Shown in pieces: positions 34 through 18,659 of a DNA stretch of 33,709 nt (within the stretch, counting starts at the first letter, position 1; each line of letters starts with the position of its first letter). The stretch is taken from sequence record DRR723986_30199; one strand, given 5' to 3'. The position numbers were made by a program, and so were the translations under genes. The notes under the pieces are model-generated. The model was not told where the DNA came from. It did no database searches and was given only the letters and a program-made list of their open reading frames with translations.

Positions 34-1638
34 ATGTACGTTAGAAAAAAAATTTTATTAATTACCAGTGGTGATCTACGTTTAGATGCCAATCAAGTAG
101 GCTGGAAATTCCAGGAAAAAATGGAACAGCAGCTTGAAACCACCCTTCATGAATTCGGTTATCAAGTTCTCCGTGGACACAACTATGATTCTTTCAAGAA
201 GCATGGTTTTATTGATTCTCAAAGGATGGGAATTGAAGTTTTTAAATCTCTTGATCCGACATTGCCTATCATAGTAGCTGAAAGTGTTTGGCAGTATACG
301 CACCATGTATTGCCTGGATTAATGACGCATTTGGGCCCGATCTTGACTCTGGCAAACTGGGAAGGAATGTCTTCAGGATTAGTAGGTATGTTGAACCTGA
401 ACGGATCATTAACAAAGGCAGAGGTTACCTATAGTACGCTATGGAGTAATGATTTTCAAGATGATTTTTTTAAGGAAAAATTAGCTGAATGGCTTAAGAC
501 AGGAGTCATCCTACATGATGAGTCGCATGTTCAGTATTTTGATTCAATAGAAATATCAGAAGCAATTAGAGTTTTTGCTAAGGCTTTCGCCCGAGACTTT
601 TTGAAAAATAAAGCCATTATGGGCGTTTTCGATGAAGGGTGTATGGGGATGTTCAATGCTATAGTCCCAGATAAACTATTGAATAAACTCGGGATCTTTA
701 AAGAAAGATTAAGTCAGTCCGCACTTTATGCTGAAATGCTTAATGTAAGTGAGATAGAAGCAGGATCAGTTCTGGACTGGTTGCTAGGCAAAGGGATGAA
801 ATTCGACTGGGGATCCAATCCATTGTCTGAACTCACCAAAGAGCAAACGCTCGAACAGTGCAAAATGTATATCGCTGCACTCAGAATAGCAGATCAGTAT
901 GGTTGCGATACCATAGGTATTCAGTATCAACAAGGATTAAAAGATCTGGTGGCTGCAAGTGATTTGGCAGAGGGTCTATTGAATAACATGGATCGCCCAC
1001 CTGTTTATGACGCAGACGGTAGAGAGCTTTATCCAAAATCAGTATTACCACACTTCAATGAAGTAGACGAGTGTGCCGGTATTGATGCGCTTATAACCAC
1101 TAAGCTTTGGTTAACTCTTGGATTAGATCCAGAAACTACCCTCCATGATATCAGATGGGGTGAGGAATACCTCATCAATGGTGAGCCTGAATTTGTTTGG
1201 GTGTTTTTAATATCGGGAGCAGCACCTCCTGCTCATTTTATTGGAGAATATACAGGAGCAAGTAGTGAGCGTCAACCTCCCATGTATTTTAAAAAAGGAG
1301 GAGGAAGCCTGAAAGGTATAAGCAAGCCTGGTCATATTGTTTGGAGCAGGATTTATATAGACAACGATGAGCTATGCTGTGATTTGGGAGTAGGAGAGGT
1401 TGTTTCCCTGCCAGAGAAGGAAACGCAGAGACGATGGGAAAACACAACCTCTGCTTGGCCTATTATGCATGCAGTATTACCGGGGATTTCCAAGAATCAG
1501 ATGATGGCTAGACACAAGGCAAATCATATTCAAGTAGTGTATGCTGACTCATTAGAATCAGCAAATAATGCAGCTAAGCATAAAGCTGCGGTTTTTAACG
1601 CCCTAGGCGTAAAAACCTTTATATGTGGCGATTTTTAA
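34..1638 (+). CDS. L-fucose/D-arabinose isomerase family protein
   Basis: 534 aa, no signal peptide; GVFDEGCMGM, IGIQYQQGLKD, HFNEVDEC, ETTLHDIRWG and C-terminal MMARHKANHIQV resemble the FucI/AraA-like isomerase superfamily (recognised from memory, no search run). Confidence 0.75.
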   Translation: MYVRKKILLITSGDLRLDANQVGWKFQEKMEQQLETTLHEFGYQVLRGHNYDSFKKHGFIDSQRMGIEVFKSLDPTLPIIVAESVWQYTHHVLPGLMTHLGPILTLANWEGMSSGLVGMLNLNGSLTKAEVTYSTLWSNDFQDDFFKEKLAEWLKTGVILHDESHVQYFDSIEISEAIRVFAKAFARDFLKNKAIMGVFDEGCMGMFNAIVPDKLLNKLGIFKERLSQSALYAEMLNVSEIEAGSVLDWLLGKGMKFDWGSNPLSELTKEQTLEQCKMYIAALRIADQYGCDTIGIQYQQGLKDLVAASDLAEGLLNNMDRPPVYDADGRELYPKSVLPHFNEVDECAGIDALITTKLWLTLGLDPETTLHDIRWGEEYLINGEPEFVWVFLISGAAPPAHFIGEYTGASSERQPPMYFKKGGGSLKGISKPGHIVWSRIYIDNDELCCDLGVGEVVSLPEKETQRRWENTTSAWPIMHAVLPGISKNQMMARHKANHIQVVYADSLESANNAAKHKAAVFNALGVKTFICGDF

Positions 1639-1668
1639 TAATTAACCTAACCCAAAACCCTAAATAAA

Positions 1669-4600
1669 ATGAATGTAAGACTACCTTTTCTTTGGAGGTT
1701 TTCTTTGATTGCGCTAATGCTTTTTGGAGCATTACTTGCGTCAAATCCCTCCTATGCACAGCAACGTACCGTCAAAGGAACGGTAACCACAGGGGATGTT
1801 CCGTTGGGACTTCCAGGTGTTAATGTCTTGCTTAAAGGCACGACTGTAGGAACAGTAACAGATATTGATGGGAATTATTCAATCAATGTCACGGATGGAA
1901 ATAGTGTATTGATCTTTTCAATGATAGGATTTGAAAAGCAAGAAGCCGAAATCGGCTCACGATCTCTCATTGACATTAAATTAAATGAGGATATAAGTGC
2001 ACTGGATGAAGTGGTCGTAGTTGGATATGGGACAGTAAAGAAAAGTGATCTTACTGGTGCAGTGGGAGTATTAAAGAAAGACGATTTTAATGCTGGAGTT
2101 ATAACTTCTGCGGAACAACTGCTTGCTGGAAAAATCCCTGGTGTTCAAGTAGTTCAGAACAGTGCAGAGCCTGGGGGAGCTATTTCTGTAAACATTAGAG
2201 GCGTTGGCTCGGTCAATTCAGGAAATTCGCCTTTATATGTGATTGACGGGTTGCCTATGGATAATAGCCTTGCTGTTTCAGGGTCTGGATCAAATTTTGA
2301 TCAAAAAACTTCCAGGAACCCCTTGGCTTCTTTGAACCCTGGTGACATTGAATCCATTGAAGTTTTAAAAGATGCTTCTTCCACTGCTATATATGGAGCA
2401 AGAGGAGCTAATGGTGTAGTGTTGATTACTACCAAAAAAGGTTCCAAGGGAGGATTGCAAACCAATTATGATTTTTACCTGGGGATTCAAAATGTCGCTA
2501 GGAGGTTGGATGTATTAGACCCAGTTGATTACCAAAGTATACTAAATAACATTATCGATAGCGGAGGTGGATCTGAAGGTGAAAGAGTGGAGGGGATTCA
2601 ACGTAATGGGACCAATTGGCAAGATGAGGTTTATCAGGAAAATGCCCTTGTTCAAAGTCATAACCTATCTTTTACTGGAGGAAATGAGAAAACTCAATTT
2701 TATGCAGGTTTAAATTATTTTGACCAAGATGGGGTTGTTAAAAATTCCTCTTACGAAAGGTTTGGATTTAGGCTCAATCTTGAACATAAAGTATCAGATA
2801 AATTTGTGTTAGGGACAGCGCTAAACAGTACATATACAAAAGATACTTATTTCCCTTCCGGTTTTGGTATTAATGAAGGTGCAGGGGTTTTGTATTCTGC
2901 TTACAACTACGACCCTACTATTAGCCAATTTGAAGATGATGGCTCTTACAACCGTTCTACTTTCATGACGATGGATAGCCCGTTGGCTCTAATTAACGGT
3001 AAAACAAGTACATCCAATAGTTATCGTACATTCGGTACCCTATATATGGAATATTTCCTAAGTAAGGCATTCTCATTTCGAGTAAATCTAGGTGGAGATA
3101 TTAATAGTCAGCAAAGGGATACATATATAGATAGAACAACAATAGATGGCTTTGCAAATGGAGGAATTGCTTCTGTCCTCACTGGAAATCGCAGTAATTA
3201 TCTTGTTGAAGGGTTAATTAATTATAATAAGGTAATTGGTGACCATTCAATAAATGGTGTCATTGGTGCTACTACTCAAAGGTTTATTTCAACAAACTTA
3301 AATGGAACAGCTAGGGCGTTCCCTTCTGATGTTTTAAAAACCAACAATTTAAGTTTAGGAGACCCCCTTTTATATACGTTATCAAACTCTAGGGCTTCCA
3401 ACCAGCTTTTATCGTATTTGGGAAGAGTAAATTATGTATATAAAAATAAATATTTATTAACAGCAAGTCTTAGAGCTGATGGTTCTTCACGATTCGGTAC
3501 TAATAACAGGTTTGGATATTTTCCTTCCGTCGCAGCGGGTTGGAAGATTAATGAAGAAGAATTTTTCTCCAGTATCGAAGAAACTGTAAGTACATTAAAA
3601 TTGAGAGCAAGTTGGGGTAGGACTGGGAACCAGGAAATTGGTAATTATCAAGCAATAACCACGTTTGGAAATGGACCAATTGCTGTAATGGATGATAAGC
3701 AGGTTAAAACACTTGATCCTACAAGAATTGGGAATGAAGATTTAGTGTGGGAAACTACGGAACAATTAAATTTTGGAGTTGACTTTGGGTTTTTTCAGGA
3801 TAGGTTGCAAGGAAGCATTGATTACTATAAGAAAAATACTTTTAATATGCTGCTTAACCTTCCAATCCCTACAGAAACAGGGTTTACCACCCAGACTAGG
3901 AATGTAGGGAGTGTTAAGAATTCAGGATTGGAATTTGGATTAAATTCTACCAATATTAATAGTACCAACTTTAAATGGACCACAAATCTGCTTTTTAATA
4001 CTTTAAAGAATGAAGTTACCGATTTGGGAGGGATTCCAAGAATTGTTACCGGTAGTGCGGGGTTTTCAAACCAAATATCCATTATAGAGGAGGGACTTCC
4101 ACTTAATAGCTTTTATGGATATGAAATCCTAGGTATATGGCAAGAAGGAGATGATTTTTCAACAACTACAGACAATGTTTCTCCTGGAGATTTTAAATAT
4201 CGGGATGTAGATGGAAATGGAGTTGTCAATTCTGAGGATAGAGTGGTTCTAGGGAACTCCTTTCCTAAGTTTATTTGGTCTATCGGTAATACTTTCAGGT
4301 ATAAAGGGTTCGAGTTATATGTATTTTTCGAAGGACAGGATGGTCTTCAAATGTATAATGGAAATCTAGCTGAAACTTATTTTCCAATCAGTTTTAGAAG
4401 AAATAAACTTTCAGAGCCGATTAAAAATAGATGGACTCCAGAAAACCCTTCTACGGTATATCCTTCTTTTGTTAATCCGCTGGGGCAAGGTCAGAAATCT
4501 GTAAACAGCTATACTGTGGAAGATGCCTCCTATGCTCGACTTAACACGGTTCGGATCAGCTATAATTTTAATGTGAATTCAAAAGTTTTTAATTCCGCAA

Positions 4601-4755
4601 AAATTTATGTTACCGGGCAAAATTTAGCTACATGGACAGACTACTCCGGTTTGGATCCTGCTGTTAATCCCAATGGAGGTGCAAATCTTAGAATAGACTT
4701 TAATGCATATCCTATCGCCAGAACTTTTATGGGCGGAGTTATTGTACAATTTTAA
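1669..4755 (+). CDS. susC: SusC/RagA family TonB-dependent transporter
   Basis: Signal peptide, carboxypeptidase-regulatory-like N-domain (GTVTDIDGNYSI), VVVVGYG, plug motif DIESIEVLKDASSTAIYGARGANGVVLITTKKG, LRADGSSRFG, C-terminal Phe. Confidence 0.97.
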   Translation: MNVRLPFLWRFSLIALMLFGALLASNPSYAQQRTVKGTVTTGDVPLGLPGVNVLLKGTTVGTVTDIDGNYSINVTDGNSVLIFSMIGFEKQEAEIGSRSLIDIKLNEDISALDEVVVVGYGTVKKSDLTGAVGVLKKDDFNAGVITSAEQLLAGKIPGVQVVQNSAEPGGAISVNIRGVGSVNSGNSPLYVIDGLPMDNSLAVSGSGSNFDQKTSRNPLASLNPGDIESIEVLKDASSTAIYGARGANGVVLITTKKGSKGGLQTNYDFYLGIQNVARRLDVLDPVDYQSILNNIIDSGGGSEGERVEGIQRNGTNWQDEVYQENALVQSHNLSFTGGNEKTQFYAGLNYFDQDGVVKNSSYERFGFRLNLEHKVSDKFVLGTALNSTYTKDTYFPSGFGINEGAGVLYSAYNYDPTISQFEDDGSYNRSTFMTMDSPLALINGKTSTSNSYRTFGTLYMEYFLSKAFSFRVNLGGDINSQQRDTYIDRTTIDGFANGGIASVLTGNRSNYLVEGLINYNKVIGDHSINGVIGATTQRFISTNLNGTARAFPSDVLKTNNLSLGDPLLYTLSNSRASNQLLSYLGRVNYVYKNKYLLTASLRADGSSRFGTNNRFGYFPSVAAGWKINEEEFFSSIEETVSTLKLRASWGRTGNQEIGNYQAITTFGNGPIAVMDDKQVKTLDPTRIGNEDLVWETTEQLNFGVDFGFFQDRLQGSIDYYKKNTFNMLLNLPIPTETGFTTQTRNVGSVKNSGLEFGLNSTNINSTNFKWTTNLLFNTLKNEVTDLGGIPRIVTGSAGFSNQISIIEEGLPLNSFYGYEILGIWQEGDDFSTTTDNVSPGDFKYRDVDGNGVVNSEDRVVLGNSFPKFIWSIGNTFRYKGFELYVFFEGQDGLQMYNGNLAETYFPISFRRNKLSEPIKNRWTPENPSTVYPSFVNPLGQGQKSVNSYTVEDASYARLNTVRISYNFNVNSKVFNSAKIYVTGQNLATWTDYSGLDPAVNPNGGANLRIDFNAYPIARTFMGGVIVQF

Positions 4756-4767: not shown

Positions 4768-6246
4768 ATGAAAATGATAAATATTAAAAATATAATAGCT
4801 GTGATGTTGGTGTTTAATCTGACCTCCTGCATAGACATGCTAGACGAGCCAGTATATTCACAACTCGCTCCTGAAAATCTTCTTACAACGGAAGAAGGTA
4901 TCAAGAATGTACTTTATTCATCGTATGCGCATACGGCGAATATGAGTGGGGCCAGTTCAAAAGCTGTTATAGCTATGGAGGAATGGCAGACAGATCTGAT
5001 GTGGCAAACAGGAGGTGGAGAAAATGGTAATGCAGTTCAGTTTATCAATTATACATTGGATCCGGGAATGGGGCTGCTATTTAGTGATATTTGGAGTCCC
5101 AATTACCGAGCTATTAGGAATGCTAATATTATATTAGAAAATATTGATGATGTGGATATACCAGATCAAAAGAAAAATGAATTTAGCGCAGAAGCTCGTT
5201 TTATCAGAGCCATTAGCTATATAAAACTATATGATTCTTTTGGTCCTGTTCCAATTAGAAGAAGTACCACTGATGAATTGGAAGTTCCTCGACCTTCAGC
5301 TGAGGAAATGTCAGACTTTATAGAAGAAGACCTTTTATTTGGATTGGATCATCTCCCTTTGCCAGGTTCAGAAGAAGAATTTGGAAGAGCAAATAGAGGT
5401 GCCACTTTGGGATTTTTGGTGAAATTCTATTTGCAAGGAAAAGAATGGGAAAAAGTTGTTGAGTATACTGATAAGCTAATATCATTAGGATATTATTCTC
5501 TATATCCCGTGTACCAAGATATGTTCAAAGTTGAGAATGAACGAAACTCAGAGATGATATGGGTGAAACCGGCTTATCCAGACGCAACTAGATCTTCAGC
5601 TAATGATTGGATGAACGGTGCATTTCCGGTTGGTTTTCAAATGGATCCTGTATCAGGACTGGAGTTTCGACCTAACTGGGTAATTTTTGCTTCGGAATAC
5701 AGAATGAGAGATGAGTTTTATAACTCCTTTTCAGAAAATGATAAACGTAAAAATTTAATAATAACTTCATTTATTAACAACGCAGGTGAAACCATACAGT
5801 TGCTTGGAAATGATAATACCCGATCCTTTAAGTATTGGCCTGATCCTAACGCTGTTCAACAGGCACATGGCAATGATATTCCTGTTATACGCTATGCAGA
5901 CATCCTACTTTCAAGAGCGGAAGCGTTAAATGAGATTTCAGGTCCAAATCAGGAAAGTTTAAACTTAATTAATCAAGTTAGAAATAGAGCAGGTCTAAAT
6001 GATTCGGATATATTGTTATCGATGTTCCCTTCCAAAGATTCTTTGCGAGAGCATATTTTAAAGGAACGGGGTTGGGAATTTTATTCAGAAGCGAAAAGAA
6101 GATTGGATATGATTCGAATGGGAGTATTAATTAGTAATGCCCAAAAAAGAGGAATATCCAATGCACAGGATTTTCGTGTTTTACTACCAATTCCACAACA
6201 AGCTATAGATTCTAATCCTATTTTAGTTCAAAATGAAGGATATTAA
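4768..6246 (+). CDS. susD: RagB/SusD family glycan-binding lipoprotein
   Basis: Lipobox NLTSC; EARFIRA, IRYADILLSRAEALNE, ERGWEFYSEAKRRLDMIR, LPIPQ...NP.LVQNEGY; directly follows susC. Confidence 0.96.
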   Translation: MKMINIKNIIAVMLVFNLTSCIDMLDEPVYSQLAPENLLTTEEGIKNVLYSSYAHTANMSGASSKAVIAMEEWQTDLMWQTGGGENGNAVQFINYTLDPGMGLLFSDIWSPNYRAIRNANIILENIDDVDIPDQKKNEFSAEARFIRAISYIKLYDSFGPVPIRRSTTDELEVPRPSAEEMSDFIEEDLLFGLDHLPLPGSEEEFGRANRGATLGFLVKFYLQGKEWEKVVEYTDKLISLGYYSLYPVYQDMFKVENERNSEMIWVKPAYPDATRSSANDWMNGAFPVGFQMDPVSGLEFRPNWVIFASEYRMRDEFYNSFSENDKRKNLIITSFINNAGETIQLLGNDNTRSFKYWPDPNAVQQAHGNDIPVIRYADILLSRAEALNEISGPNQESLNLINQVRNRAGLNDSDILLSMFPSKDSLREHILKERGWEFYSEAKRRLDMIRMGVLISNAQKRGISNAQDFRVLLPIPQQAIDSNPILVQNEGY

Positions 6247-7753
6247 ATTACTTGATAGATTGGGTAAATTAATTCTTCTAACCTTTTGTATCCTTGGCAC
6301 TGTAACATGTGCCAAGGGCAAAAGTGAGCCTATTAAGTATGCAACAGAGAAACCAAATATCCTGCTGATTTATGTAGATGATTTAGGGTATGGGGACATT
6401 TCGGCTTATCCTGGAGCTAGTGGTAGATCGATAGCCGAAACGCCTAACATAGATTTACTGATTAAATCGGGAATGAGCTTTACAAATGCATATTCATCAG
6501 CTCCTTTGTGTTCTCCTGCACGTGCAGCTCTATTAACCGGTAAATCACCTGCTAGACTCGGTTTTGAGTTTGTTACAAAGTTTGAGAAAGATACCCTGGA
6601 TTGGGATGATGAAGAATGGATTGAACTGTTTGAGAATAAAAAGTTAATCTCTCCACCCATTACTTTAAACCTTCCGCTTAATGAGGTTACTGTTGCAGAA
6701 GGCCTTAAGGAATTTGGGTATGAAACTGGAATTGTTGGTAAGTGGCATGTGGCAACACATCACAAAGTATATAAAGGTTGGAGTTTAACCCATGGACCAT
6801 CTCAACAGGGTTTCGATTATGCTAATGAGACTTTTGGAGTCCATCCATACAGTGGAGCCAAATCAACTCCCCAATTAAAAGAGGGAGAATATCCAGAGGA
6901 TTTATTAACCATTGGAGCGGTGGACTTTCTTAAGAAGTCACATAATTCACCGTTTTTTCTGATGGTCAGCCATTATTTTGTTCATACGCCTCATTTACTA
7001 GGTTTACAATGGATTGAAGATAAATATAGAGCAAAGACATTACGTGAGTTAAGTGATGAAGAAGTCCGTTACGCTGCAAACATTGAATTATTGGATCATT
7101 ACGTTGGTCAGGTTTTGCAGGCTTTGGAAAAGGCAGGACATCAGGATAATACCCTGGTAATATTCACCTCTGATAATGGTGGACATCCAGTATATGCCAG
7201 TCATGCTCCTTTTAGAGGAAGTAAATGGAATCTATACGAAGCTGGAATTAGAATACCAATGGTAATTAGCTGGCCAGGGAAAATTAACCCCAACAGTCAA
7301 GTGGATGTACCAGTTATCCAAACTGATTTCTTTCCTACTTTTATGGATTTAGCCGGGGGTAAGGAATTTAAAAGAAACCAGCTAGATGGACAATCAATTC
7401 TTCCCCTGTTGTTGGGTGAAAAATTTAATAGGGAAAAACCTCTTTTATGGTACTTTCCCTATTATCACCCTGAGGGGAAAGCGTATAATAAAGCACTGGA
7501 AAATATTGGTGTGGAGGATGGGGAAATAAGTCAAACACGTCCCCAAGCAGCAATTCGGAAAGGTTCCCTCAAACTAATTTACTTTTTCGACACGGATCTA
7601 GTGGAGTTATATGACCTTAATACTGATCCGGGCGAATTCAATGACCTTAGTTCGATCAGGTCTTGGGAAGCCAAACTAATGAAAGATGATTTGATGCAAC
7701 GTTTGTATTCTTCTCATGCTAGACTCCCTCGTATCAACACTCAAACCCTTTAA
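6233..7753 (+). CDS. Formylglycine-dependent (S1) sulfatase, Cys-type, exported
   Basis: KPNILLIYVDDLG, signature CSPARAALLTG (CxPxR), GKWH, FTSDNGG, LYEAGIRIP; N-terminal hydrophobic signal with Cys; overlaps the susD stop. Confidence 0.95.
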   Translation: MKDIKLLDRLGKLILLTFCILGTVTCAKGKSEPIKYATEKPNILLIYVDDLGYGDISAYPGASGRSIAETPNIDLLIKSGMSFTNAYSSAPLCSPARAALLTGKSPARLGFEFVTKFEKDTLDWDDEEWIELFENKKLISPPITLNLPLNEVTVAEGLKEFGYETGIVGKWHVATHHKVYKGWSLTHGPSQQGFDYANETFGVHPYSGAKSTPQLKEGEYPEDLLTIGAVDFLKKSHNSPFFLMVSHYFVHTPHLLGLQWIEDKYRAKTLRELSDEEVRYAANIELLDHYVGQVLQALEKAGHQDNTLVIFTSDNGGHPVYASHAPFRGSKWNLYEAGIRIPMVISWPGKINPNSQVDVPVIQTDFFPTFMDLAGGKEFKRNQLDGQSILPLLLGEKFNREKPLLWYFPYYHPEGKAYNKALENIGVEDGEISQTRPQAAIRKGSLKLIYFFDTDLVELYDLNTDPGEFNDLSSIRSWEAKLMKDDLMQRLYSSHARLPRINTQTL

Positions 7754-7758: not shown

Positions 7759-8934
7759 ATGAAAATTATCACCCTCTTTATATTAATTCTATCTACCAGT
7801 TACGGACTGCGTGCCAGGCAATTTGATAACTCAAAAGTTCCAGGTGTTGTCGTTGCTTATAGCCCAGCTTCTTCGGGCAAGTACATAGGATCTCCTAGTT
7901 TGGCTATTTTACCTAATGGCAATTATGTGGCTTCTCATGATCTTTTTGGACCGGAATCAAATGAGCACAAAAGAGCCACCTCCAAAATTTATTCCTCAAC
8001 GAATAAAGGGAAATCATGGAAGGAAATCGCTGTAATTGATGGAGCCTTTTGGTCTAAACTATTTGTTAATCAAGGTAAACTGTATTTTCTGGGAACCGAT
8101 AGACATCATGGTAATACCTTGATAAGGATGTCAACTGATAATGGAATTACTTGGACAGACCCAGTTGATAGCTCTACTGGTCTGTTATTGGAAGGAGAGT
8201 ATCATTGTGCACCTATGCCAATTATTGAACATAATGGACGGCTATGGAGAGGTATGGAAAGTGCGATGGGACCCATTAAAAAATGGGGTAAAAGATATGG
8301 CGCCTTTATGATGTCCGCTCCAGTTGATGCTGATTTATTGCAAGCCAAGAATTGGACTACTAGTAACATTTTATACTATGACTCAACCTACCTAGAAGGA
8401 AATTTTGGTGGGTGGTTAGAAGGGAACGCAGTAGTGGATAAAGAAGGACAATTATGGGATATCTTACGAGTAGATGATCGCTCGACTCTTGATGAAAAAG
8501 CAGCCAAAGTTGAAATAAGTTCAAATGGAAAAGATGCGAGTTTTAATCCTGCCACAGGATTTATAGATTTTCCTGGTGGAAGTAAAAAATTTACAATTAG
8601 ATATGACGAAAAATCGGAACGCTATTGGACAATTGCAAACGTAATATCTAATGAACTTAAACAGGTGATGAAAGGGGAAAACCCTGCCAAAATCCGAAAT
8701 ACGCAAGCCTTATTTTCATCTCACGATCTCCTTAACTGGGAACAAGAGACAATTCTTTTGCAACACTCGGATGTGGAAAAACATGGGTTTCAATATGTGG
8801 ATTGGGTTTTTGAGGGGAAAAACATCCTATTCCTTTCAAGAACAGCCTATGAAGATGGGGTAGGCGGAGCAAGAAATAACCATGATGCCAATTTCCTGAC
8901 TTTCCATAAAATCAAAAAATTCAGAAAACTTTAA
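7759..8934 (+). CDS. Asp-box (BNR) sialidase-like beta-propeller protein, exported
   Basis: Signal peptide; Asp-box-like SSTNKGKSW, STDNGITW, SSHDLLNW; WLEGN, ILRV and FQYVDW motifs; lacks canonical (F/Y)RIP. Confidence 0.75.
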   Translation: MKIITLFILILSTSYGLRARQFDNSKVPGVVVAYSPASSGKYIGSPSLAILPNGNYVASHDLFGPESNEHKRATSKIYSSTNKGKSWKEIAVIDGAFWSKLFVNQGKLYFLGTDRHHGNTLIRMSTDNGITWTDPVDSSTGLLLEGEYHCAPMPIIEHNGRLWRGMESAMGPIKKWGKRYGAFMMSAPVDADLLQAKNWTTSNILYYDSTYLEGNFGGWLEGNAVVDKEGQLWDILRVDDRSTLDEKAAKVEISSNGKDASFNPATGFIDFPGGSKKFTIRYDEKSERYWTIANVISNELKQVMKGENPAKIRNTQALFSSHDLLNWEQETILLQHSDVEKHGFQYVDWVFEGKNILFLSRTAYEDGVGGARNNHDANFLTFHKIKKFRKL

Positions 8935-12409: not shown

Positions 12410-13902
12410 TCAATTTTAAATCTGCAATTGGTCAAAAAACAGCAATGCGAATCCATATCCTTGACGTGGGGATTCCTCACGGCGTAGTTAGGAGCTTGTT
12501 CATTGTACTAGTGTTCATTCTTTCAAACTGTAATACCAAACCTTCGAACTCAGAAGGAGATTCTTCGAATATGATTAAGTTAGTTAAAGAAGTACAAGTG
12601 ACTGAAGCGCCTGCCGGACACTTTTTAAACCAGCGACAGGCATTTTCTCCAGATGATGAATATTTAGTCTTTGACAATAGAAATGATGATTCCAAGATAG
12701 GTGAAAATGGAAGTATTCAACTTGTTCATCTTGCTACAAAGCGCGTGGAAACAGTTTATAACCTGCCTAATCAATCTGCTTATGGTCCTGGTGCTGGGGC
12801 GGTTTCATTTCATCCTTCAAAAAAAGAAATTGTTTTTATCAATGGTCTGAATAATGCATCCGAGGGTACCCCATATGGATTTACAAGGCGCATTGCAATG
12901 CAGGTAAATCTTGAAAATGATAATCACTTCTCTCCCTTAGAGGCAAGGGATGGGGTGCCTCCCTTTACTAAGGGTGCTTTGCGTGGTGGTTCGCATGCTT
13001 ATTCCTATAGCTCAGACGGCCAAATGATTAGTTTCACTTATAATGATGCCGTATTAGCAGAGGAGTCATTATCCAATCCTAAAGTACATGATTTAAGAAC
13101 TGTAGGTGCATTTCTACTCGGCAAGCGCGTATCTATTTTAGGTGAAAACAATGAAGAGAATTTTGACGGGAATGGATTTGCTTTTTTGCTAGCAGAAGTA
13201 ACCATTAATCCCAAGCCAGGATCAGATGAAATCAGTAAAGCTTATGAAGAATGCTGGGTTGGAGATGCTGGCTATACTAAGCCGGATGGAACCATTCAAA
13301 AGCGTGCAATGGCTTTTTTGGGAGATGTGATTTCTGAATCAGGGGAGAAAGTAACGGAAGTGTTTATAGCCGATATTCCAGATGACATAAATAGTATGAT
13401 AAAAACAGTGAGCGCAGGAAGCAAGACAAGTCTGCCTTCCATTCCAGCTGGAGTGAAGCAGCGGAGACTCACCTTCACAGCAGACAATAAATATCCGGGA
13501 GTCCAAGGTCCTAGACAGTGGTTAAGAAGTTCTCCTGATGGAAGCGCTATCTATTTCTATCAAAAGGATGATGCTGGAATAGTTCAGATATATTCCGTAT
13601 CACCTTCAAGTGGCAAAATAGCTGCTGTCACGAGTAATGATTTTTCTGCGGATACGGATTTTTCTCTTAGTTCAGATGGGAACTACTTGGCCTATGGGTC
13701 AAAGGATAAACTATATATCACAAAGGTTGATGATAGTTCTACTAGACTTATAGCATCATCTCTTGAAAATAGTATATCACTAAGTAATATTAATTGGTCA
13801 AACCATGGCCACAAAATCGCTTACAACAGAAAAGTTGGGATGAATGGCGAGGCTTTTTATCAAATTTTCACACTAGATCTTTCAAACCTATTAAACAAGT
13901 AG
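12406..13902 (+). CDS. DUF3748/YidR-like TolB-type beta-propeller protein, probable lipoprotein
   Basis: GALRGGSHAYSYSSDGQMISFTYND, DLRTVG, PGSDEISKAYEECWVG, QRRLTFT and PRQWLRSSPDGS match my recollection of E. coli YidR; possible lipobox ILSNC; start may be the ATG at 12445. Confidence 0.8.
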   Translation: MINFKSAIGQKTAMRIHILDVGIPHGVVRSLFIVLVFILSNCNTKPSNSEGDSSNMIKLVKEVQVTEAPAGHFLNQRQAFSPDDEYLVFDNRNDDSKIGENGSIQLVHLATKRVETVYNLPNQSAYGPGAGAVSFHPSKKEIVFINGLNNASEGTPYGFTRRIAMQVNLENDNHFSPLEARDGVPPFTKGALRGGSHAYSYSSDGQMISFTYNDAVLAEESLSNPKVHDLRTVGAFLLGKRVSILGENNEENFDGNGFAFLLAEVTINPKPGSDEISKAYEECWVGDAGYTKPDGTIQKRAMAFLGDVISESGEKVTEVFIADIPDDINSMIKTVSAGSKTSLPSIPAGVKQRRLTFTADNKYPGVQGPRQWLRSSPDGSAIYFYQKDDAGIVQIYSVSPSSGKIAAVTSNDFSADTDFSLSSDGNYLAYGSKDKLYITKVDDSSTRLIASSLENSISLSNINWSNHGHKIAYNRKVGMNGEAFYQIFTLDLSNLLNK

Positions 13903-13903: not shown

Positions 13904-14845
13904 ATGTCGTTACTTTCAATATTAAATTCGCCTTTAAAAGGTATTGTACCACCGATGGTTACACCCTTGAACGCTGATGGTTCTTTGGATACCGCATCTG
14001 TTAAGAAACTGATTGAACATCTTATTTCTGGCGGAGTTCATGGTATTTTTATCTTGGGAACTACCGGTGAATTCTCTGGTTTGAGTTATCAAACACGCAG
14101 AAATTTAATCACTCAAACATGTAGTCAAGTTGCCGGGAGAGTTCCGGTACTCGTAGGCATAACAGATGTATCCATTGAAGAGAGTATAGCTTTGGCTGAG
14201 TTCTCAGCTAAAGCGGGTGCTAATGCTGTAGTAGTAGCACCTCCTTTTTACAATAATATTGACCAAAAGGAATTGATTCAATATTACCTTCAATTGGCAG
14301 ATGCGATATCCATTCCTATGTTTCTCTACAATATGCCATCTCATACTAAACTGACTATTGAGGTGGATACCGCTGTTAGATTAGCAGAACATCAGCGCAT
14401 TATTGGTTTGAAAGACAGTTCTGCCCATGCAGTTTATTTCCAGTCCTTATGCTATGCATTTAGAGATCATAAAGACTTTGTGCTAATGGTAGGGCCCGAA
14501 GAAATGATGGCAGAAACAGTTTTGATGGGAAGTGACGGAGGAGTGTGTGGTGGAGCCAATATGTTTCCTCAACTCTATGTACAACTCTATGATGCTGCTG
14601 TAAATAGGGATTTTGAGAAGATTTTTGAATTGCAACAGCGAGTAATGGAAATTAGCCAAAACATATACCAAGTAGGTGGGTACAAATCCAGTTACATGAA
14701 AGGGCTCAAAACAGCACTATCATTTATGGGGCTTTGCCAAGCTGAGTTTGCTGCTCCACTTTATCCTTTTTCTCCAGAAGAAGCTGAAAAAGTAAAAGTA
14801 ATTTTAGCTAAGCTTAAATTAGGTCTGAAGCTCGATTTGGTTTAA
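13904..14845 (+). CDS. DapA/NanA-family class I aldolase (2-keto-3-deoxy sugar acid aldolase-like)
   Basis: VPPMVTP, GTTGE, PPFY, LYNMP (catalytic Tyr), GLKDSS (Schiff-base Lys); has YNMPSHT where DHDPS has YNxPxRT. Confidence 0.9.
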   Translation: MSLLSILNSPLKGIVPPMVTPLNADGSLDTASVKKLIEHLISGGVHGIFILGTTGEFSGLSYQTRRNLITQTCSQVAGRVPVLVGITDVSIEESIALAEFSAKAGANAVVVAPPFYNNIDQKELIQYYLQLADAISIPMFLYNMPSHTKLTIEVDTAVRLAEHQRIIGLKDSSAHAVYFQSLCYAFRDHKDFVLMVGPEEMMAETVLMGSDGGVCGGANMFPQLYVQLYDAAVNRDFEKIFELQQRVMEISQNIYQVGGYKSSYMKGLKTALSFMGLCQAEFAAPLYPFSPEEAEKVKVILAKLKLGLKLDLV

Positions 14846-14861
14846 TCGCGCACTTTTTCAT

Positions 14862-14886
14862 AGGGAAATTAAAGTTTCCCTGTTTT
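14862..14886 (+). terminator. Intra-operon hairpin (weak terminator or mRNA-stabilising stem)
   Basis: AGGGAAATT-AA-AGTTTCCCT followed by GTTTT, between the aldolase and SSS genes. Confidence 0.45.
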
Positions 14887-14918
14887 CCCAAACCCGAACC
14901 CAAAATAACTTCCCACAA

Positions 14919-16418
14919 ATGGATTTACCTATCATCGATTTAGTAGTATTTCTTGTTTACATGGCTGCTATTGTCTTGTTTGGAATTTCCTTTTCCTTCA
15001 AGAAAAGAACTGCCTTAGAATACACCACAGGAGGAGGCCGACTTCCGAGTTGGGCGATCGGCATGAGTATATTTGCCACTTTCGTCAGCAGTATTAGTTT
15101 CTTGGCTTTACCTGGAAATGCCTACCTGTCCAATTGGAATGGATTTGTGTTTAGTCTTTCTATTCCATTGGCCGCATTTTTTGCTGTCAAATATTTTGTC
15201 CCACTTTACCGAAACCTGAAGAGTGAATCAGCCTATTACTACTTAGAAACACGTTTTGGTTCCTGGGCCAGAGTATATGCTTCCATTTGTTATTTGTTAA
15301 CACAGTTAGCTAGAATGGGAGCAATAATGTATTTGTTGGCTTTGCCTATGAATGCCTTATTTGGCTGGAGCATTCCTTTGATTATCATTTGTACAGGAAT
15401 AAGTGTAATGGTATATGCCATGCTAGGAGGCATAGAGGCGGTAATCTGGACAGATGCGATTCAAGGAATTGTCCTGATTGCGGGAGCCTTGCTTTGTCTT
15501 GGAGTAATTCTATTTTCTATGCCAAATGGCCCTGGAGAAGTGATTACTATAGCAGCAGAAGCTGATAAATTTAGTTTGGGTAGTTTTAAATTCAATTTTG
15601 TGGAATCAACCTTTTGGATGATTTTAATCTACGGACTGTTTATCAATCTTCAGAATTTTGGGATTGACCAAAGTTATATTCAACGCTACATCACGGCCAG
15701 AACTGAGAAAGAAGCGATAAAATCTACCTGGTTTGGGAGTTTGCTCTATGTGCCCGTTTCCTTGCTGTTTTTCTTTATAGGAACTGCTTTGTTTTCTTAT
15801 TATCAGGCATTTCCAGAACTGCTTCCTGCTGAATTGCATCTCGCTGAGAATGCAGATAAAGTATTTCCTTATTTCATCGTTTCGGGACTTCCTTCAGGAG
15901 TAACTGGGATTTTGATTGCCTCCATTTTTGCGGCAGGTATGAGTACTGTATCTACGAGTATCAATAGTTCAGCTACCGTTTTTCTTTCAGATCATTATAA
16001 AAAATACCTCCATAAAAACACCACAGAGAAACAGTCAATGCGAGTGTTGCTGATTAGTTCTTTCGTGATGGGGGGAATGGCGATTGTTGTAGCCTTGGCT
16101 TTCAACGGAGTTACCAGTGCATTGGAAGCTTGGTGGGCGCTTTCATCAATATTTAGCGGAGGTATTCTAGGCTTGTTTTTACTTGGATTTGTAGTAAAGA
16201 AAGCTTCCAGTAAGGCGGCGGCAATCGGAGTACTTTGTGGCGTTGTGGTCATCGGATGGATGAGCCTTTCTCCGGTTCTATTTAATGGAACCAGCCTGGA
16301 AGGATTTCAAAATACATTGCACACCAACCTCACAATCGTAATGGGAACCTTGACGATTTTTATTGTGGGATTCCTACTTACTGGCCTTTTTTCAAAAAAT
16401 AACAACATAAGCTCATGA
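14919..16418 (+). CDS. Sodium:solute symporter (SSS), SiaT-like sugar-acid transporter
   Basis: Highly hydrophobic; SIFATFVSSISFLALPG, SAYYYLETRFG, GGIEAVIWTDAIQG, DQSYIQRY, IFAAGMSTVSTSINS. Confidence 0.93.
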   Translation: MDLPIIDLVVFLVYMAAIVLFGISFSFKKRTALEYTTGGGRLPSWAIGMSIFATFVSSISFLALPGNAYLSNWNGFVFSLSIPLAAFFAVKYFVPLYRNLKSESAYYYLETRFGSWARVYASICYLLTQLARMGAIMYLLALPMNALFGWSIPLIIICTGISVMVYAMLGGIEAVIWTDAIQGIVLIAGALLCLGVILFSMPNGPGEVITIAAEADKFSLGSFKFNFVESTFWMILIYGLFINLQNFGIDQSYIQRYITARTEKEAIKSTWFGSLLYVPVSLLFFFIGTALFSYYQAFPELLPAELHLAENADKVFPYFIVSGLPSGVTGILIASIFAAGMSTVSTSINSSATVFLSDHYKKYLHKNTTEKQSMRVLLISSFVMGGMAIVVALAFNGVTSALEAWWALSSIFSGGILGLFLLGFVVKKASSKAAAIGVLCGVVVIGWMSLSPVLFNGTSLEGFQNTLHTNLTIVMGTLTIFIVGFLLTGLFSKNNNISS

Positions 16419-18079
16419 GTAACTATGTAATAGGTCTAGATTATGGGACAGACTCCGTCCGTGCCATATTGGTAGCTACAAGTAACGGGGAAGTCATATC
16501 CAGTGCTGTTTATACTTATCCACGCTGGCAAAAACGACTTTATTGCGAGGAGCAAAGCAATCAATTTAGGCAACATCCGCTGGATCATCTTGAAGGCTTA
16601 GAATTTACTATTTCTGCTATAGTCAAAGAATCAGGAATTCATAACTCCCAGATCAAAGCGATATGTGTGGATACTACGGGGTCATCTCCCATGCCAGTAG
16701 ATGCAAATGGAGAATCCTTAGCCTTAAGCGAGGAATTTGCTGAAAATCCTAATGCGATGATGATCTTATGGAAAGATCATTCAGCCATACCGGAAGCTGA
16801 GGAAATTACCCACCTGGCAAAGACTTGGGGTGGAGAGGATTTTACAAAATACTCCGGTGGAATCTATTCCTCTGAATGGTTTTGGGCTAAAATTCTTTCT
16901 ATTGGTCGAAAAGATAAGGAGGTCAAAAATGCGGCAGTTTCTTGGGTGGAGCACTGTGATTATATCACCCGAGTGCTTACAGGTACAAGTTTGGGGACAA
17001 TGAAAAGAAGTCGATGTGCAGCAGGCCATAAAGCGATGTGGCATGAAGACTGGGATGGGCTTCCTCCCAAAGAATTTTTAACCTTATTGGATCCACAATT
17101 GGCTGAATTAAGAGATAATATTTCCTCGCAAACCTTTACTTCAGTTGAATCAGCTGGGACTATCTCCCAGGAGTGGGCAATAAAATTAGGGTTATCCGAA
17201 AATACGGTAGTGGCAGTGGGGATCATTGATGCACACGCAGGTGCTATTGGAGCAGGTATCACTGAAAACACATTAGTTAAAGTAATAGGAACCTCTACTT
17301 GTGATATGTTAATAGCCTCTGAAAAAGCTTTAGGAAAACATTTAGTAAGAGGTATTTGTGGTCAGGTTGATGGGTCTATAATGCCTGGCTATTATGGCTT
17401 GGAAGCAGGGCAGGCCGGATTCGGAGATGTTTTAGCCTGGTTTGCGAGTTTTGTTCTTAAACCTAGTATGAATATCATACAAAGGAGTAATTGTATAAAT
17501 GAGGAGACAAAAAGGATTCTTATGGATGAATTACAGGATTCTATGCTTTCAAATTTGTCAGGAGAAGCAGAAAAATTGAAAGGATTCTCACAGGATATAC
17601 TCGCGTTGGATTGGATAAACGGGAGGAGGTCTCCAGATGCTGATGAATCTTTAAAAGGCGTTCTCGCAGAACTCACCATGGGAACTAGTGCTGCACAGGT
17701 ATTTAAGGGATTAGTGGAATCTCTTTGTTTTGGTTCTAAGCGTATTATTGACAGGTTTGAAGAGGAAGGATTGCTGATTGAGGAAGTTATAGCTATAGGT
17801 GGAGTAGCTAATAAATCGTCATATGTAATGCAGACTATGGCGGATATTTTGGGGCGTACTATTAAAGTCACCGCTTCCACACAGACTCCTGCATTAGGAG
17901 CAGCGATGTATGCAGCCACAGCATCAGGATTAGTTAATTCTCTGGACGAGGCAATTGAGACTATGGGGCCTGGATTTGATGCCATTTACACCCCCAATAT
18001 GCAATTTGAATCTGCCTATAAAATTAAATATGAGCAGTACAAGAAGTTAGGAGAGCTGGTAGAAGGAATGAAATTGTAA
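16415..18079 (+). CDS. araB: Ribulokinase (FGGY family)
   Basis: GLDYGTDSVR, FRQHPLD, LWKDH, YSSEWFWAK, RSRCAAGHKAMW, GICGQVDGS, LEAGQ, DWINGRRSP; ATGA overlap with the SSS stop. Confidence 0.92.
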   Translation: MSNYVIGLDYGTDSVRAILVATSNGEVISSAVYTYPRWQKRLYCEEQSNQFRQHPLDHLEGLEFTISAIVKESGIHNSQIKAICVDTTGSSPMPVDANGESLALSEEFAENPNAMMILWKDHSAIPEAEEITHLAKTWGGEDFTKYSGGIYSSEWFWAKILSIGRKDKEVKNAAVSWVEHCDYITRVLTGTSLGTMKRSRCAAGHKAMWHEDWDGLPPKEFLTLLDPQLAELRDNISSQTFTSVESAGTISQEWAIKLGLSENTVVAVGIIDAHAGAIGAGITENTLVKVIGTSTCDMLIASEKALGKHLVRGICGQVDGSIMPGYYGLEAGQAGFGDVLAWFASFVLKPSMNIIQRSNCINEETKRILMDELQDSMLSNLSGEAEKLKGFSQDILALDWINGRRSPDADESLKGVLAELTMGTSAAQVFKGLVESLCFGSKRIIDRFEEEGLLIEEVIAIGGVANKSSYVMQTMADILGRTIKVTASTQTPALGAAMYAATASGLVNSLDEAIETMGPGFDAIYTPNMQFESAYKIKYEQYKKLGELVEGMKL

Positions 18080-18088
18080 TCACCGACT

Positions 18089-18659
18089 ATGAGAATTTTA
18101 ATATATAAGCTATTTAGTACATTTTATCTGTTAACCTTAATTGTCAGTTCCAGCTACGCTGAGGTTAAGGATGCCCTCACTATTTTCAGATAATATGGGG
18201 CTGCAACAAAAGATGACTGTTCCGATCTGGGGCTGGGCGAAACCCGACTCAAAAGTGACGCTTTCTGCGTCCTGGCTTGATGAGAGCCTCACGTTTGAGG
18301 CAGGTACAAATGGTGAATGGAGAACTAAAATTTCTACTCCTGAAGCTGGAGGGCCTTATACCATTACCATAAGTGATGGTGAAGATGAACATTAGATTAA
18401 AAATGTATTGGTTGGAGAAGTCTGGTTTTTATCAGGACAATCCAATATGGAAATGCCTTTCAAAGGATGTAAATCTCAGCCCGTGGCCGGGGGTAATGAT
18501 GCGATAGTAAAAGCAAATTCTGATCGAATACGGATGATTACTGTGCCCAGGAATGGAGAACTCACTTTGATGAATGACTTTAAAGGAGCTTGGGAGGTTT
18601 CTTCTCCTGAAGTGGTGTCTAATTTCTCTGCTATAGGGTGGTTCTTTGCTGAGGGATGA
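18089..18659 (+). pseudogene. Sialate O-acetylesterase (SGNH) pseudogene, N-terminal part only
   Basis: ATG 18089 gives signal peptide MRILIYKLFSTFYLLTLIVSSSYA-EVK; an extra G at about 18170 shifts frame to MPSLFSDNMGLQQ...AGGPY; in-frame TAG 18393-18395 then IKNVLVGEVWFLSGQSNM; ends at FSAIGWFFAEG* 18659. Confidence 0.9.

Follow-up and report, generated by a model that had tools for sequence, protein, structure and literature searches.

Which sugar is taken apart by a gene cluster that joins a sialidase-fold protein, a SiaT-like symporter and a NanA/DapA-superfamily aldolase to a FucI-family isomerase and a ribulokinase? The cluster lies in a 33,709-nucleotide stretch of DNA from sequence record DRR723986_30199 (the whole stretch is referred to here as the window). 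Its open reading frames (ORFs) comprise 11 tightly spaced plus-strand genes at 34-18079, separated in order by 30, 12, -14, 5, 9, 10, -4, 1, 73 and -4 bases and followed by a broken acetylesterase gene (Table 1). Domain identities were established through Pfam and NCBIfam profile searches of window ORFs of at least 100 aa. Every gene named by a first-pass annotation of the sequence was found where that annotation had put it, on one strand, although its list had missed the FG-GAP and DUF3748 lipoproteins. Its remark that nanE, nanK, nagA and AraD do not occur in the window was borne out, as no nanE-, nanK-, nagA-, araA- or araD-like family was detected among the ORFs scanned; ORF 31920-33518 matched no family. 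The O-acetylesterase remnant that it described is real. The remnant reads in a single frame with an in-frame stop, ends after approximately 170 residues and has 33-44% identity (tblastn) to the N-terminal regions of two complete proteins (loci L031 and L080) that bear Pfam SASA (PF03629), while its two pieces by themselves match no Pfam family. We propose, with modest confidence, that this Bacteroidota cluster is a PUL for a sulfated glycan bearing Kdo or a closely related 3-deoxy-2-ulosonic acid, in which Kdo would be converted to pyruvate and D-arabinose.

Table 1 Genes of the cluster, with coordinates in the window and the family or method on which each identity is based.
Feature	Coordinates	Strand	Basis
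Divergent FucI-family aldose-ketose isomerase (P0001)	34..1638	+	Fucose_iso_C
SusC-type TonB-dependent transporter	1669..4755	+	Plug, CarboxypepD_reg
SusD-type glycan-binding lipoprotein	4768..6246	+	SusD_RagB, SusD-like_3
S1 (formylglycine) sulfatase with signal peptide	6233..7753	+	Pfam Sulfatase
Secreted six-bladed sialidase-fold propeller (P0002)	7759..8934	+	predicted structure
Second S1 sulfatase with signal peptide	8944..10434	+	Pfam Sulfatase
FG-GAP repeat lipoprotein	10445..12409	+	FG-GAP_3
DUF3748 beta-propeller lipoprotein	12406..13902	+	DUF3748
DapA/NanA-superfamily class I aldolase (P0003), proposed Kdo aldolase	13904..14845	+	DHDPS
SiaT-like Na+/solute symporter	14919..16418	+	SSF
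AraB-type ribulokinase	16415..18079	+	NF003154
SASA-type (sialate O-acetylesterase family) gene remnant	18141..18659	+	frame reading, tblastn

Gene identities, folds, synteny and co-occurrence are shown below; from them we infer the following scheme, in its substrates, in the order of its reactions and in what the propeller and the FG-GAP and DUF3748 proteins do. On the cell surface and in the periplasm, SusC/SusD and the FG-GAP and DUF3748 lipoproteins would seize and process the glycan, and the two formylglycine sulfatases would remove sulfate. The propeller would then free the ulosonic acid, a step for which relatives also have a BT1013-like BNR_2 enzyme. The free acid sugar would be taken up by the symporter and split by the DapA-family aldolase into pyruvate and D-arabinose. 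The FucI-family isomerase would convert D-arabinose to D-ribulose, and the AraB-type kinase would deliver D-ribulose-5-phosphate to the pentose phosphate pathway with no epimerase needed.

The proteins assigned to the outer steps are shared with related Bacteroidota loci to differing degrees. SusC is 63-65% identical to its counterparts in Algoriphagus and Cyclobacterium loci. The first sulfatase (184.5 bits to Pfam Sulfatase; CSPAR motif at residue 93) reaches 75-76% identity in Cyclobacterium and Algoriphagus, and the second (186.6 bits; CSPSR at residue 82) reaches 76% in two Arenibacter loci and is missing from the Algoriphagus resistens locus. The FG-GAP protein matches FG-GAP_3 in four stretches (98 bits), has a lipobox-like N-terminus and is 87% identical in A. 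resistens (L054) and 59-60% identical in L029, L034, L036 and L083. The DUF3748 protein (96.4 bits) has a lipobox-like N-terminus downstream of an internal Met, and a PDB sequence search returned no match for either lipoprotein.

The propeller P0002 matched no Pfam or NCBIfam family, and its sequence contains two Asp-boxes but lacks an R[IVL]P motif. Its structure model (pLDDT 94.2) was compared with solved structures through VIA-align; the best 50 entries were all sialidase structures (Z 28.5-31.5), counting one sialidase-derived designed protein and one receptor-sialidase fusion, with the best matches superposing at an rmsd of approximately 3.2 A over 290-319 residues at 13-18% identity. The sialidase-like propeller of the first-pass annotation thus has a sialidase fold. 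Relatives of P0002 occur in at least 473 stretches of genome_contigs. Among 80 P0002-homologue loci, a DUF3748 gene lies within 10 kb on either side in 13, mostly as the direct neighbour, and an SSS or DHDPS gene lies within 10 kb in just 17, so the propeller is not bound to the proposed Kdo route.

A probable link to Kdo release comes from the BNR_2 genes of related loci. The Bacteroides thetaiotaomicron protein BT1013 is described, in a passage of PMC13501991, as a GH78 rhamnosidase at the N-terminus joined to a KDO hydrolase at the C-terminus, the latter active on chain C of RG-II, and part of PMC11214529 classes the RG-II Kdo hydrolase in GH33. The BNR_2 genes of the loci syntenic with ours share 49% identity with the corresponding domain of a GH78-BNR_2 fusion of 1270 aa (L090), which is likened to BT1013 by its domain architecture. 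A BNR_2 homologue was found on the same contig, within approximately 27 kb, in 5 of 6 genomes with a P0001-type isomerase of at least 64% identity versus 38 of 401 genomes overall (Fisher p = 3e-5, relatedness ignored). Speaking against the Kdo reading, P0002 itself aligns to the BNR_2 family over just 74 columns and has neither a Pfam BNR_2 match nor a RIP-type motif; it is the sole sialidase-fold protein of the window, from which a BT1013-like BNR_2 gene is absent. In keeping with such a glycan, Kdo and sulfate are reported together in Cobetia polysaccharides (in part of PMC11766843) and Kdo is reported in prasinophyte scales and thecae (in passages of PMC10762512 and PMC13213038). A section of a preprint (10.64898/2026.03.13.711244) states that B. 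thetaiotaomicron secretes D-Kdo instead of using it, and a gene-level pathway of Kdo catabolism was not found in the literature searched.

The proteins assigned to the inner steps were analyzed in the same manner. The symporter (SSF, 159.9 bits) is the sole inner-membrane transporter within the cluster. Aligned to its best solved relative, 5nv9 (286 bits), it keeps Arg135 and Ser60, with Thr63 replaced by Ser, Thr58 by Phe and Gln82 by Leu; two of the changed positions align with residues of 5nv9 that contact Neu5Ac. A lone SiaT-like transporter with the aligned Arg135 kept would fit uptake of an acid sugar from which the pentose is then made intracellularly. The aldolase P0003 belongs to the DHDPS family (Pfam, 214.8 bits) and displays the motifs GTTGE at 52, YNMPSHT at 142 and GLKDS at 168. 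Its closest solved relative, PDB 4xky (341 bits, residues 7-300), was deposited as a dihydrodipicolinate synthase and also has the YNMP(S/T)HT stretch. P0003 falls below the NCBIfam dapA cut-off (196.2 versus 206.15), and a separate DapA above the cut-off lies away from the locus in all five related genomes searched. P0003 is also far under both nanA cut-offs (114.7 versus 382 and 153.6 versus 281), and paralogues 45-53% identical to it occur in loci with no isomerase or kinase (L082, L084-L087). P0003 is put forward as a candidate Kdo aldolase, with the deposited name of 4xky and these paralogues as points against.

The putative relationship between P0001 and FucI is based on a single C-terminal match to Fucose_iso_C (32.9 bits versus a cut-off of 29.3) and a weak profile alignment that is colinear with canonical FucI over 376 columns (probability 3.6%); the N1 and N2 FucI domains were unmatched, as were NCBIfam and PDB sequences. 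In the Atlas it neighbours clusters labelled 'fucose isomerase family' (0.98), and E343, D372 and H498 are invariant across 15 homologues. We propose that it may act as a D-arabinose isomerase. The kinase scores 681 bits against NF003154 (cut-off 428), and its first 4 bases overlap the end of the symporter gene.

Comparative analysis ties the isomerase to an aldolase. P0001-type isomerases were detected in 16 of 401 sampled Bacteroidota genomes. In the five genomes besides G001 with a P0001-type enzyme of at least 64% identity, each fetched 20-kb region has a DHDPS-family gene, four have an SSS gene (47-48%), four an AraC gene and one araB. The three annotated loci of this clade (L088, L090 and L092) encode RG-II-type enzymes, namely Apiosidase, a BT_1020-like propeller, GH95, GH2 with malectin and DUF3826, and their aldolase is of another DHDPS-family type, 23-29% identical to P0003. 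A. resistens has the same gene order as the window at 54-89% identity, with a BNR_2 gene (276.6 bits) between isomerase and SusC. In Arenibacter aquaticus (L002 and L083, one contig) the order is araB, canonical FucI, three BNR_2 genes, a P0002 homologue, a sulfatase, two unannotated ORFs, SusC, SusD, a sulfatase, BNR_2, DUF386/YhcH, FG-GAP, aldolase (53% identical to that of the window), SSS (59%) and LacI. The Arenibacter loci thus have a canonical FucI, with all three FucI domains, in place of P0001, and the kinase paired with it is 51-53% identical to that of the window; such a pairing would fit D-arabinose as substrate. The first-pass Kdo reading is partly supported: its catabolic half, from ulosonic acid to pyruvate and D-arabinose and on to D-ribulose and D-ribulose-5-phosphate, gains independent comparative support (the BNR_2 genes of relatives, the Arenibacter FucI swap, the P0001-DHDPS link and the absence from related genomes of AraA and of an aldolase of AraD or FucA size), which does not extend to Kdo as the sulfated residue, to a particular polymer or to the substrate preference of any one enzyme.

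The alternative that survives best, though we hold it unlikely, is that the acid degraded is another 2-keto-3-deoxy acid, for instance Kdn, Dha, an acid of the KDG type or a Kdo with methyl or other modifications, so that the aldose product is not D-arabinose and the isomerase and kinase would work on that other aldose. Kdo is the common ulosonic acid that yields D-arabinose on aldol cleavage, and the Arenibacter pairing suits that pentose; L090 moreover has a separate second gene set that would suit Dha. On the other side, P0003 scores under every curated equivalog, and two DHDPS types fill the same position across related loci. Imperialibacter (L009-L012, G004) retains the propeller, DUF3748, the aldolase (57-60%) and SSS (72-73%), and its genome G004 displayed no P0001-type gene (E 1e-10 or better), canonical FucI or ribulokinase above the cut-off. 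Passages on prasinophyte coverings also report 5-O-methyl-Kdo and Dha.

Somewhat less probable still is a glycan that bears D-arabinose itself, for example bacterial-wall D-arabinofuranosides, from which the propellers would free D-arabinose for the isomerase and kinase, with the aldolase and symporter serving an unrelated acid sugar of the same polymer. The isomerase and kinase pair requires just D-arabinose, and Foldseek gave the GH93 exo-arabinanase 3a71 as first match for P0002 (E 4e-12), but GH93 is not among the best 50 VIA-align entries, and a profile search of the window revealed no GH172, GH183 or other known D-arabinofuranosidase family. The SiaT-like nature of the sole transporter and the invariable adjacency of the isomerase clade (at least 64%) to a DHDPS-family gene also speak against it.

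An ordinary Neu5Ac locus, with its ManNAc genes elsewhere and an unrelated pentose module alongside, appears improbable. The sialidase fold, the SiaT-like transporter, the NanA-superfamily aldolase and the SASA remnant would all suit it, but the nanA scores of P0003 and the changed residues at the presumed Neu5Ac-contact positions do not, and the overlap of kinase start and symporter stop argues against an unrelated module. G002 and G003 have DHDPS and N-acylglucosamine-2-epimerase pairs away from the locus, and isomerase and aldolase genes are again found together in loci of the RG-II type, RG-II being a glycan not known to contain sialic acid. The first-pass annotation had allowed that nanE/nanK or araA/araD just upstream might explain these genes; in the closest syntenic genome the nearest 3 of 12 upstream ORFs are instead a divergent AraC regulator, a MacB/FtsX permease and an AI-2E transporter. 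In the relatives G001-G003, as distinct from the window's own genome, there is one ribulokinase match each, within this locus, AraA_N is unmatched, and an aldolase of AraD or FucA size is missing (the sole class II aldolase match is weak and sits inside a 705-722 aa open frame). Together with the DapA genes and epimerase pairs placed away from the locus, this makes ara, fuc and nan alternatives look unlikely there. An L-arabinose module, with the isomerase as a non-orthologous AraA and AraD encoded elsewhere, is accordingly very improbable even though the kinase scores 564.8 bits against the L-ribulokinase model TIGR01234, slightly below its cut-off of 583.25, for in G048 a complete araA-araD-araB set exists separately from the second araB that adjoins its P0001-type gene, and the canonical FucI found in Arenibacter does not, to our knowledge, act on L-arabinose.

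Read as a Kdo-type locus, the cluster can be set beside several known systems. It resembles nan/sialoglycan PULs in sialidase-fold release, SiaT-like import and cleavage of a 2-keto-3-deoxy acid by a class I NanA/DapA-superfamily aldolase, as well as in the SASA remnant and, in the Arenibacter version, the DUF386/YhcH gene. It differs in an aldolase below the nanA cut-offs, in lacking a ManNAc epimerase, kinase and deacetylase, in the FucI-family isomerase and ribulokinase that would act downstream, and in its sulfatases and its two lipoproteins (FG-GAP and DUF3748). With the BT1013 RG-II PUL it shares, through its relatives, the BNR_2 genes and the occurrence of the P0001 clade in RG-II-type loci, whereas the window lacks GH78, GH140, GH143, any other RG-II enzyme and a BT1013-type BNR_2 gene. 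Escherichia coli B catabolizes D-arabinose through L-fucose isomerase and then D-ribulokinase, and here too a FucI-type isomerase and an FGGY kinase would lead to D-ribulose-5-phosphate, a product for which no AraD or FucA is needed; the differences are that D-arabinose would form inside the cell from the aldolase, the isomerase is very divergent and the kinase is AraB-like. Finally, a Kdo aldolase activity is cited, in part of PMC12199768, from work of 1966-1990 with no gene attached, and the reaction is the same as that proposed for the 13904-14845 product.

Analysis of the window bore out the gene cluster that had been proposed in the first-pass annotation. Eleven plus-strand genes span 34-18079, and the spacings between them are 30, 12, -14, 5, 9, 10, -4, 1, 73 and -4 bases. 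The susC/susD pair, 12 bases apart, is followed by co-directional sulfatases and propellers, which is the arrangement of a PUL. Both sulfatases carry the C-x-P-x-R motif and belong to family S1. Inspection of the N-termini by eye indicates export of the sulfatases, the 391-aa protein (P0002) and both lipoproteins, and suggests that the isomerase, aldolase and kinase are cytoplasmic. PDB sequence searches with the DUF3748 and FG-GAP proteins returned no usable match, and the Atlas neighbours of the former were DUF3748/PD40 clusters only. The O-acetylesterase remnant described in the same annotation was also located, at 18141-18659, as a single reading frame with an internal stop, ending after approximately 170 residues and resembling the N-terminal part of two full-length SASA acetylesterase-domain proteins; the two esterase pieces matched nothing when scanned alone against Pfam. 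The remainder of the window (an outer-membrane barrel, FUR, an MFS transporter, a methyltransferase, an SDR, a TetR regulator and hydrolases) looks unrelated to the locus. Directly after the locus, 19307-23063 encodes a 958-aa OMP_b-brl_3/CarboxypepD_reg outer-membrane protein and then a Porph_ging/PNGase_F-II_N-like protein, a pair that is probably unrelated to it. A 532-aa plus-strand ORF at 31920-33518 matched no Pfam family. No RNA sequencing run was listed as containing the window, and the DNA runs that were listed have no more than 0.47 of the sampled words in common with it; neither habitat nor expression was deduced from these runs.

Genes of the cluster, in order along the window
Feature	Position	Strand	Evidence
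FucI C-terminal-domain protein (isomerase, P0001)	34-1638	+	no other FucI domain matched
SusC	1669-4755	+	family scan
SusD	4768-6246	+	family scan
S1 formylglycine sulfatase, first	6233-7753	+	Pfam Sulfatase 184.5 bits; CSPAR motif
391-aa protein without family (P0002)	7759-8934	+	Pfam/NCBIfam scans
S1 formylglycine sulfatase, second	8944-10434	+	Pfam Sulfatase 186.6 bits; CSPSR motif
FG-GAP repeat lipoprotein	10445-12409	+	family scan
DUF3748 propeller lipoprotein	12406-13902	+	family scan
DHDPS-family protein (aldolase, P0003)	13904-14845	+	Pfam DHDPS 214.8 bits
SSS transporter (symporter)	14919-16418	+	family scan
Ribulokinase (kinase)	16415-18079	+	NF003154 681.2 bits, cut-off 428

Family tests were applied to the four proteins on which a catabolic route would depend. 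The Pfam match of the aldolase, together with its GTTGE, YNxP and GxKD lysine motifs at residues 52, 142 and 168, places it in the DHDPS/NAL class I aldolase superfamily. It scores below the cut-off of the DapA equivalog (TIGR00674, 196.2 against 206.15) and below both NanA cut-offs (114.7 against 382 for TIGR00683 and 153.6 against 281 for NF003164). Open-access papers and preprints yielded no printed reference sequence for Kdo aldolase (EC 4.1.2.23). The closest structure is PDB 4xky (341 bits), deposited as dihydrodipicolinate synthase, and the two proteins have a YNMP(S/T)HT stretch in common. True DHDPS carries an arginine within the corresponding stretch, and 4xky may itself be a paralogue of other function rather than a lysine-pathway enzyme. 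For the isomerase, Fucose_iso_C alone among Fucose_iso_N1, N2 and C passes its threshold (32.9 against 29.3). BLASTP against canonical FucI was not significant, the weak profile alignment was colinear at 3.6% probability, a PDB sequence search gave no usable match, and the Atlas sets the protein among clusters that bear the name fucose isomerase family. Residues E343, D372 and H498 are invariant in 15 homologues. In the weak colinear alignment E343 and H498 stand opposite the Glu and His of canonical FucI that are presumably metal ligands. The pairing of D372 with the third ligand comes from a similar motif and not from the alignment; the ligand assignment is a lead and not a test. The kinase passes the AraB equivalog NF003154 and falls slightly under the cut-off of TIGR01234 (564.8 against 583.25). 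The best solved relative of the symporter is 5nv9 (286 bits), SiaT, which transports sialic acid in Proteus mirabilis. Of the aligned residues, Arg135 and Ser60 are conserved, and Thr63 is replaced by Ser, Thr58 by Phe and Gln82 by Leu; the arginine is presumably carboxylate-binding, with a Ser/Thr cluster. Such features would fit the import of a carboxylated sugar other than Neu5Ac.

Taken together, these proteins can be arranged in a route from Kdo to D-ribulose-5-phosphate. The symporter, as the only inner-membrane transporter in the cluster, would import the carboxylated sugar, and its SiaT-like residues would also fit the formation of the neutral pentose inside the cell. The chemistry of EC 4.1.2.23, in which Kdo is cleaved to pyruvate and D-arabinose, is established, and this reaction would fall to the class I aldolase. 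FucI-type enzymes isomerise D-arabinose to D-ribulose, the step proposed for the isomerase. AraB-type kinases are able to phosphorylate D-ribulose at C5, so that the kinase could supply D-ribulose-5-phosphate, which would be used without an AraD-type epimerase.

To weigh this route against arabinose, fucose, sialic acid and lysine metabolism, genome-level checks were made, all of them in relatives, of which there were five (Algoriphagus resistens, two Arenibacter, Imperialibacter and a further genome with a P0001-type gene). DapA above the cut-off (288-298 bits) is encoded elsewhere in all five, and the aldolases of the loci score 175-184. In both Arenibacter genomes a DHDPS gene adjoins an N-acylglucosamine 2-epimerase elsewhere, which is the usual Bacteroidota sialic acid arrangement, and the only epimerase of A. 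resistens is about 160 kb from its locus. Canonical FucI was found only in the two Arenibacter genomes, inside the locus. AraA_N was found in none of the first four relatives, and the search for class II aldolases gave a single weak match in them, within a frame of 705-722 aa, so that an AraD- or FucA-sized gene was not found in these four. The only ribulokinase match in A. resistens and the two Arenibacter is that of the locus. In the fifth genome araA, araD and araB form a complete set on one contig, and another araB lies next to the P0001-type gene on a different contig. Upstream of the A. resistens isomerase, the nearest three of 12 ORFs encode a divergent AraC, a MacB/FtsX permease and an AI-2E transporter.

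A search of 401 evenly drawn Bacteroidota genomes with the isomerase found P0001 matches in 16, six of them 64-80% identical and ten 58-61%. Five genomes at 64% or more, A. resistens being left out, were examined over 20 kb each: a DHDPS-family gene occurs in all five loci, the symporter (47-48%) and AraC each in four, and araB in one. The three annotated loci are of RG-II type, with an Apiosidase (GH140), a BT_1020-like propeller, GH95, GH2 with malectin and DUF3826. One of these (L090) also encodes a 1270-aa fusion of a GH78 rhamnosidase with BNR_2. This is the architecture that a review (PMC13501991) describes for BT1013, whose N-terminal GH78 rhamnosidase and C-terminal KDO hydrolase act on RG-II chain C; PMC11214529 places the RG-II Kdo hydrolase in GH33. 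In the A. resistens and Arenibacter loci BNR_2 occurs as stand-alone genes, which share 49% identity with the fused BNR_2 domain. A BNR_2 homologue occurs in 38 of the 401 genomes and in five of the six with an isomerase at 64% or more, where it is always on the isomerase's contig and within about 27 kb (Fisher p = 3e-5, relatedness not corrected). The P0001-like genes at 58-61% occupy 11 loci of other contexts with a DHDPS neighbour in none, and consequently they were not counted as Kdo support. Of the two that were annotated, one (L097) lies in an operon with an ABC sugar transporter and an FGGY kinase, with a GH27-like NPCBM protein, and the other (L103) has as neighbours an FGGY-like gene and one for a periplasmic sugar-binding protein. 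Beside the fusion, symporter and isomerase of L090, a second gene set (L090:11241-19054) encodes a DHDPS, an Fe-alcohol dehydrogenase, a second DHDPS (29% to the window's aldolase), a dehydrogenase resembling PdxA, an acid-sugar kinase of DUF1537 type (SBD_N/NBD_C) and another SSS. Such a set would be suited to the breakdown of Dha, the heptulosaric acid of RG-II, via a four-carbon acid.

In an effort to place the family-less P0002, a model was built on an alignment of 50 homologues from the fetched loci, reaching a pLDDT of 94.2 and pTM of 0.90 (single-sequence model, pLDDT 32.6). Foldseek placed a GH93 arabinanase at the top of its list, ahead of GH33 sialidases (TM about 0.55-0.63). With VIA-align the best 50 entries were sialidase structures (Z 28.5-31.5), superposed at an rmsd of about 3.2 A over 290-319 residues with 13-18% identity. 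The model is a six-bladed propeller with two Asp-boxes, as in GH33 structures. An R[IVL]P motif, which would hold the first, RIP-type arginine of the GH33 triad, is missing from the protein, and no Pfam family, BNR_2 included, matched at E 0.001 or better. In an hhalign comparison the P0002 and BNR_2 families aligned over no more than 74 columns, near the Asp-boxes, so catalytic residues cannot be transferred from BNR_2 to P0002. Based on the sialidase-structure matches, the missing RIP motif and this short alignment, P0002 is assigned to the sialidase fold but to a separate family. Relatives are encoded by at least 473 of 600 candidate stretches. The best 80 are 59-81% identical and come from Cytophagales, Sphingobacteriales, Chitinophagales and Arenibacter, a conservation across four orders that is unusually high for a family-less protein. 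Most of these 80 loci have the propeller without the catabolic genes. The propeller adjoins or is near a DUF5009 protein in Runella and Aquirufa, and in several Spirosomataceae it lies downstream of an ECF sigma, anti-sigma and SusC/D set.

Gene content was counted within 10 kb on either side of the P0002 homologue in the best 80 loci, some of which end at contig edges. SusC was found in 28 and a sulfatase in 17, either of two DHDPS types in 13, DUF3748 in 13, the symporter (40% identity or more) in 12, a strong BNR_2 gene in 12, symporter and DHDPS together in eight, and an araB-type kinase, each time with an isomerase, in five. The A. resistens locus keeps the window's gene order at 54-89% identity, without the second sulfatase and with an extra BNR_2 gene between isomerase and SusC. 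About 110 kb from it (L082:9199-18289) are an aldolase paralogue (53%), SusC, a glucuronoyl-esterase-like protein, a 596-aa family-less protein and a BNR_2 gene with 43% identity to the type resembling the Kdo hydrolase. Arenibacter aquaticus has a larger version, contiguous on one contig (L002 and L083), in the order araB, canonical three-domain FucI, three BNR_2, propeller, sulfatase, two unannotated ORFs, SusC/SusD, sulfatase, BNR_2, DUF386/YhcH, FG-GAP, aldolase (53%), symporter (59%) and LacI. Olivibacter/Niabella loci comprise AraC, symporter, the other DHDPS type, SusC/D, propeller and DUF3748, with BNR_2 in two of three, and the Imperialibacter locus consists of AraC followed by propeller, DUF3748, aldolase and symporter only. 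Two displacements are seen between loci, the divergent isomerase exchanging with canonical FucI and one DHDPS type with the other at the same position.

Several observations stand against the Kdo reading. The window is without a BT1013-like BNR_2 gene, and action of P0002 on Kdo is putative. The DHDPS type of the RG-II-type loci shares no more than 23-29% identity with the aldolase of the window, whose closest structure is deposited as DHDPS. Aldolase paralogues at 45-53% have a glucuronoyl-esterase-like gene, GH31 or oxidoreductases in their loci but no isomerase. Imperialibacter retains the aldolase-symporter core in a genome in which no P0001-type gene, canonical FucI or ribulokinase above cut-off was found. 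The Kdo route of the first-pass annotation stands in part: the isomerase/DHDPS/BNR_2 linkage and the ara and nan checks in relatives speak for it, and the Imperialibacter core without isomerase and kinase speaks against it. On balance we lean, by a modest degree, towards Kdo to D-arabinose to ribulose-5-phosphate as the best-supported explanation of the locus.

Kdo is a constituent of Gram-negative lipopolysaccharide and of many capsules, and it is also found in the RG-II of plants and the scales of prasinophytes. Kdo and sulfate are reported together in Cobetia polysaccharides (PMC11766843), and Kdo, 5-O-methyl-Kdo and Dha in prasinophyte scales and Tetraselmis thecae (PMC10762512, PMC13213038). 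Literature searches of open-access papers and preprints found no gene assignment for Kdo catabolism or Kdo aldolase. For Kdo aldolase activity a 2025 paper cites 1966-1990 work only (PMC12199768). A 2026 preprint describes D-Kdo as being secreted by B. thetaiotaomicron and by most of the Flavobacterium strains tested, as being consumed by Fusarium oxysporum, and its pathways in other gut microbes as still unconfirmed (10.64898/2026.03.13.711244). If the Kdo reading is true, it would supply a gene for an orphan EC number, explain which organisms of soil, gut and sea consume the Kdo that others excrete, and offer metagenome markers for the turnover of bacterial necromass and algal scales; the marine sulfated version would point to an as yet unnamed substrate polymer and to three exported families without known activity. 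A wider proposal is tentative and, in our judgement, rather more apt to fail than to hold. It is that the locus and its relatives constitute the first genetically defined bacterial Kdo catabolic pathway. The orphan Kdo aldolase (EC 4.1.2.23) would then have its gene, and the FucI superfamily would gain a new clade of D-arabinose isomerases. In the marine version the P0002, DUF3748 and FG-GAP families, together with the sulfatases, would be further new enzymes on a sulfated Kdo-bearing glycan not yet identified as a bacterial food source, with marine bacterial capsules and prasinophyte scales as candidates. Compared with a sialic-acid-type utilisation locus, the locus of the window is a new variant.
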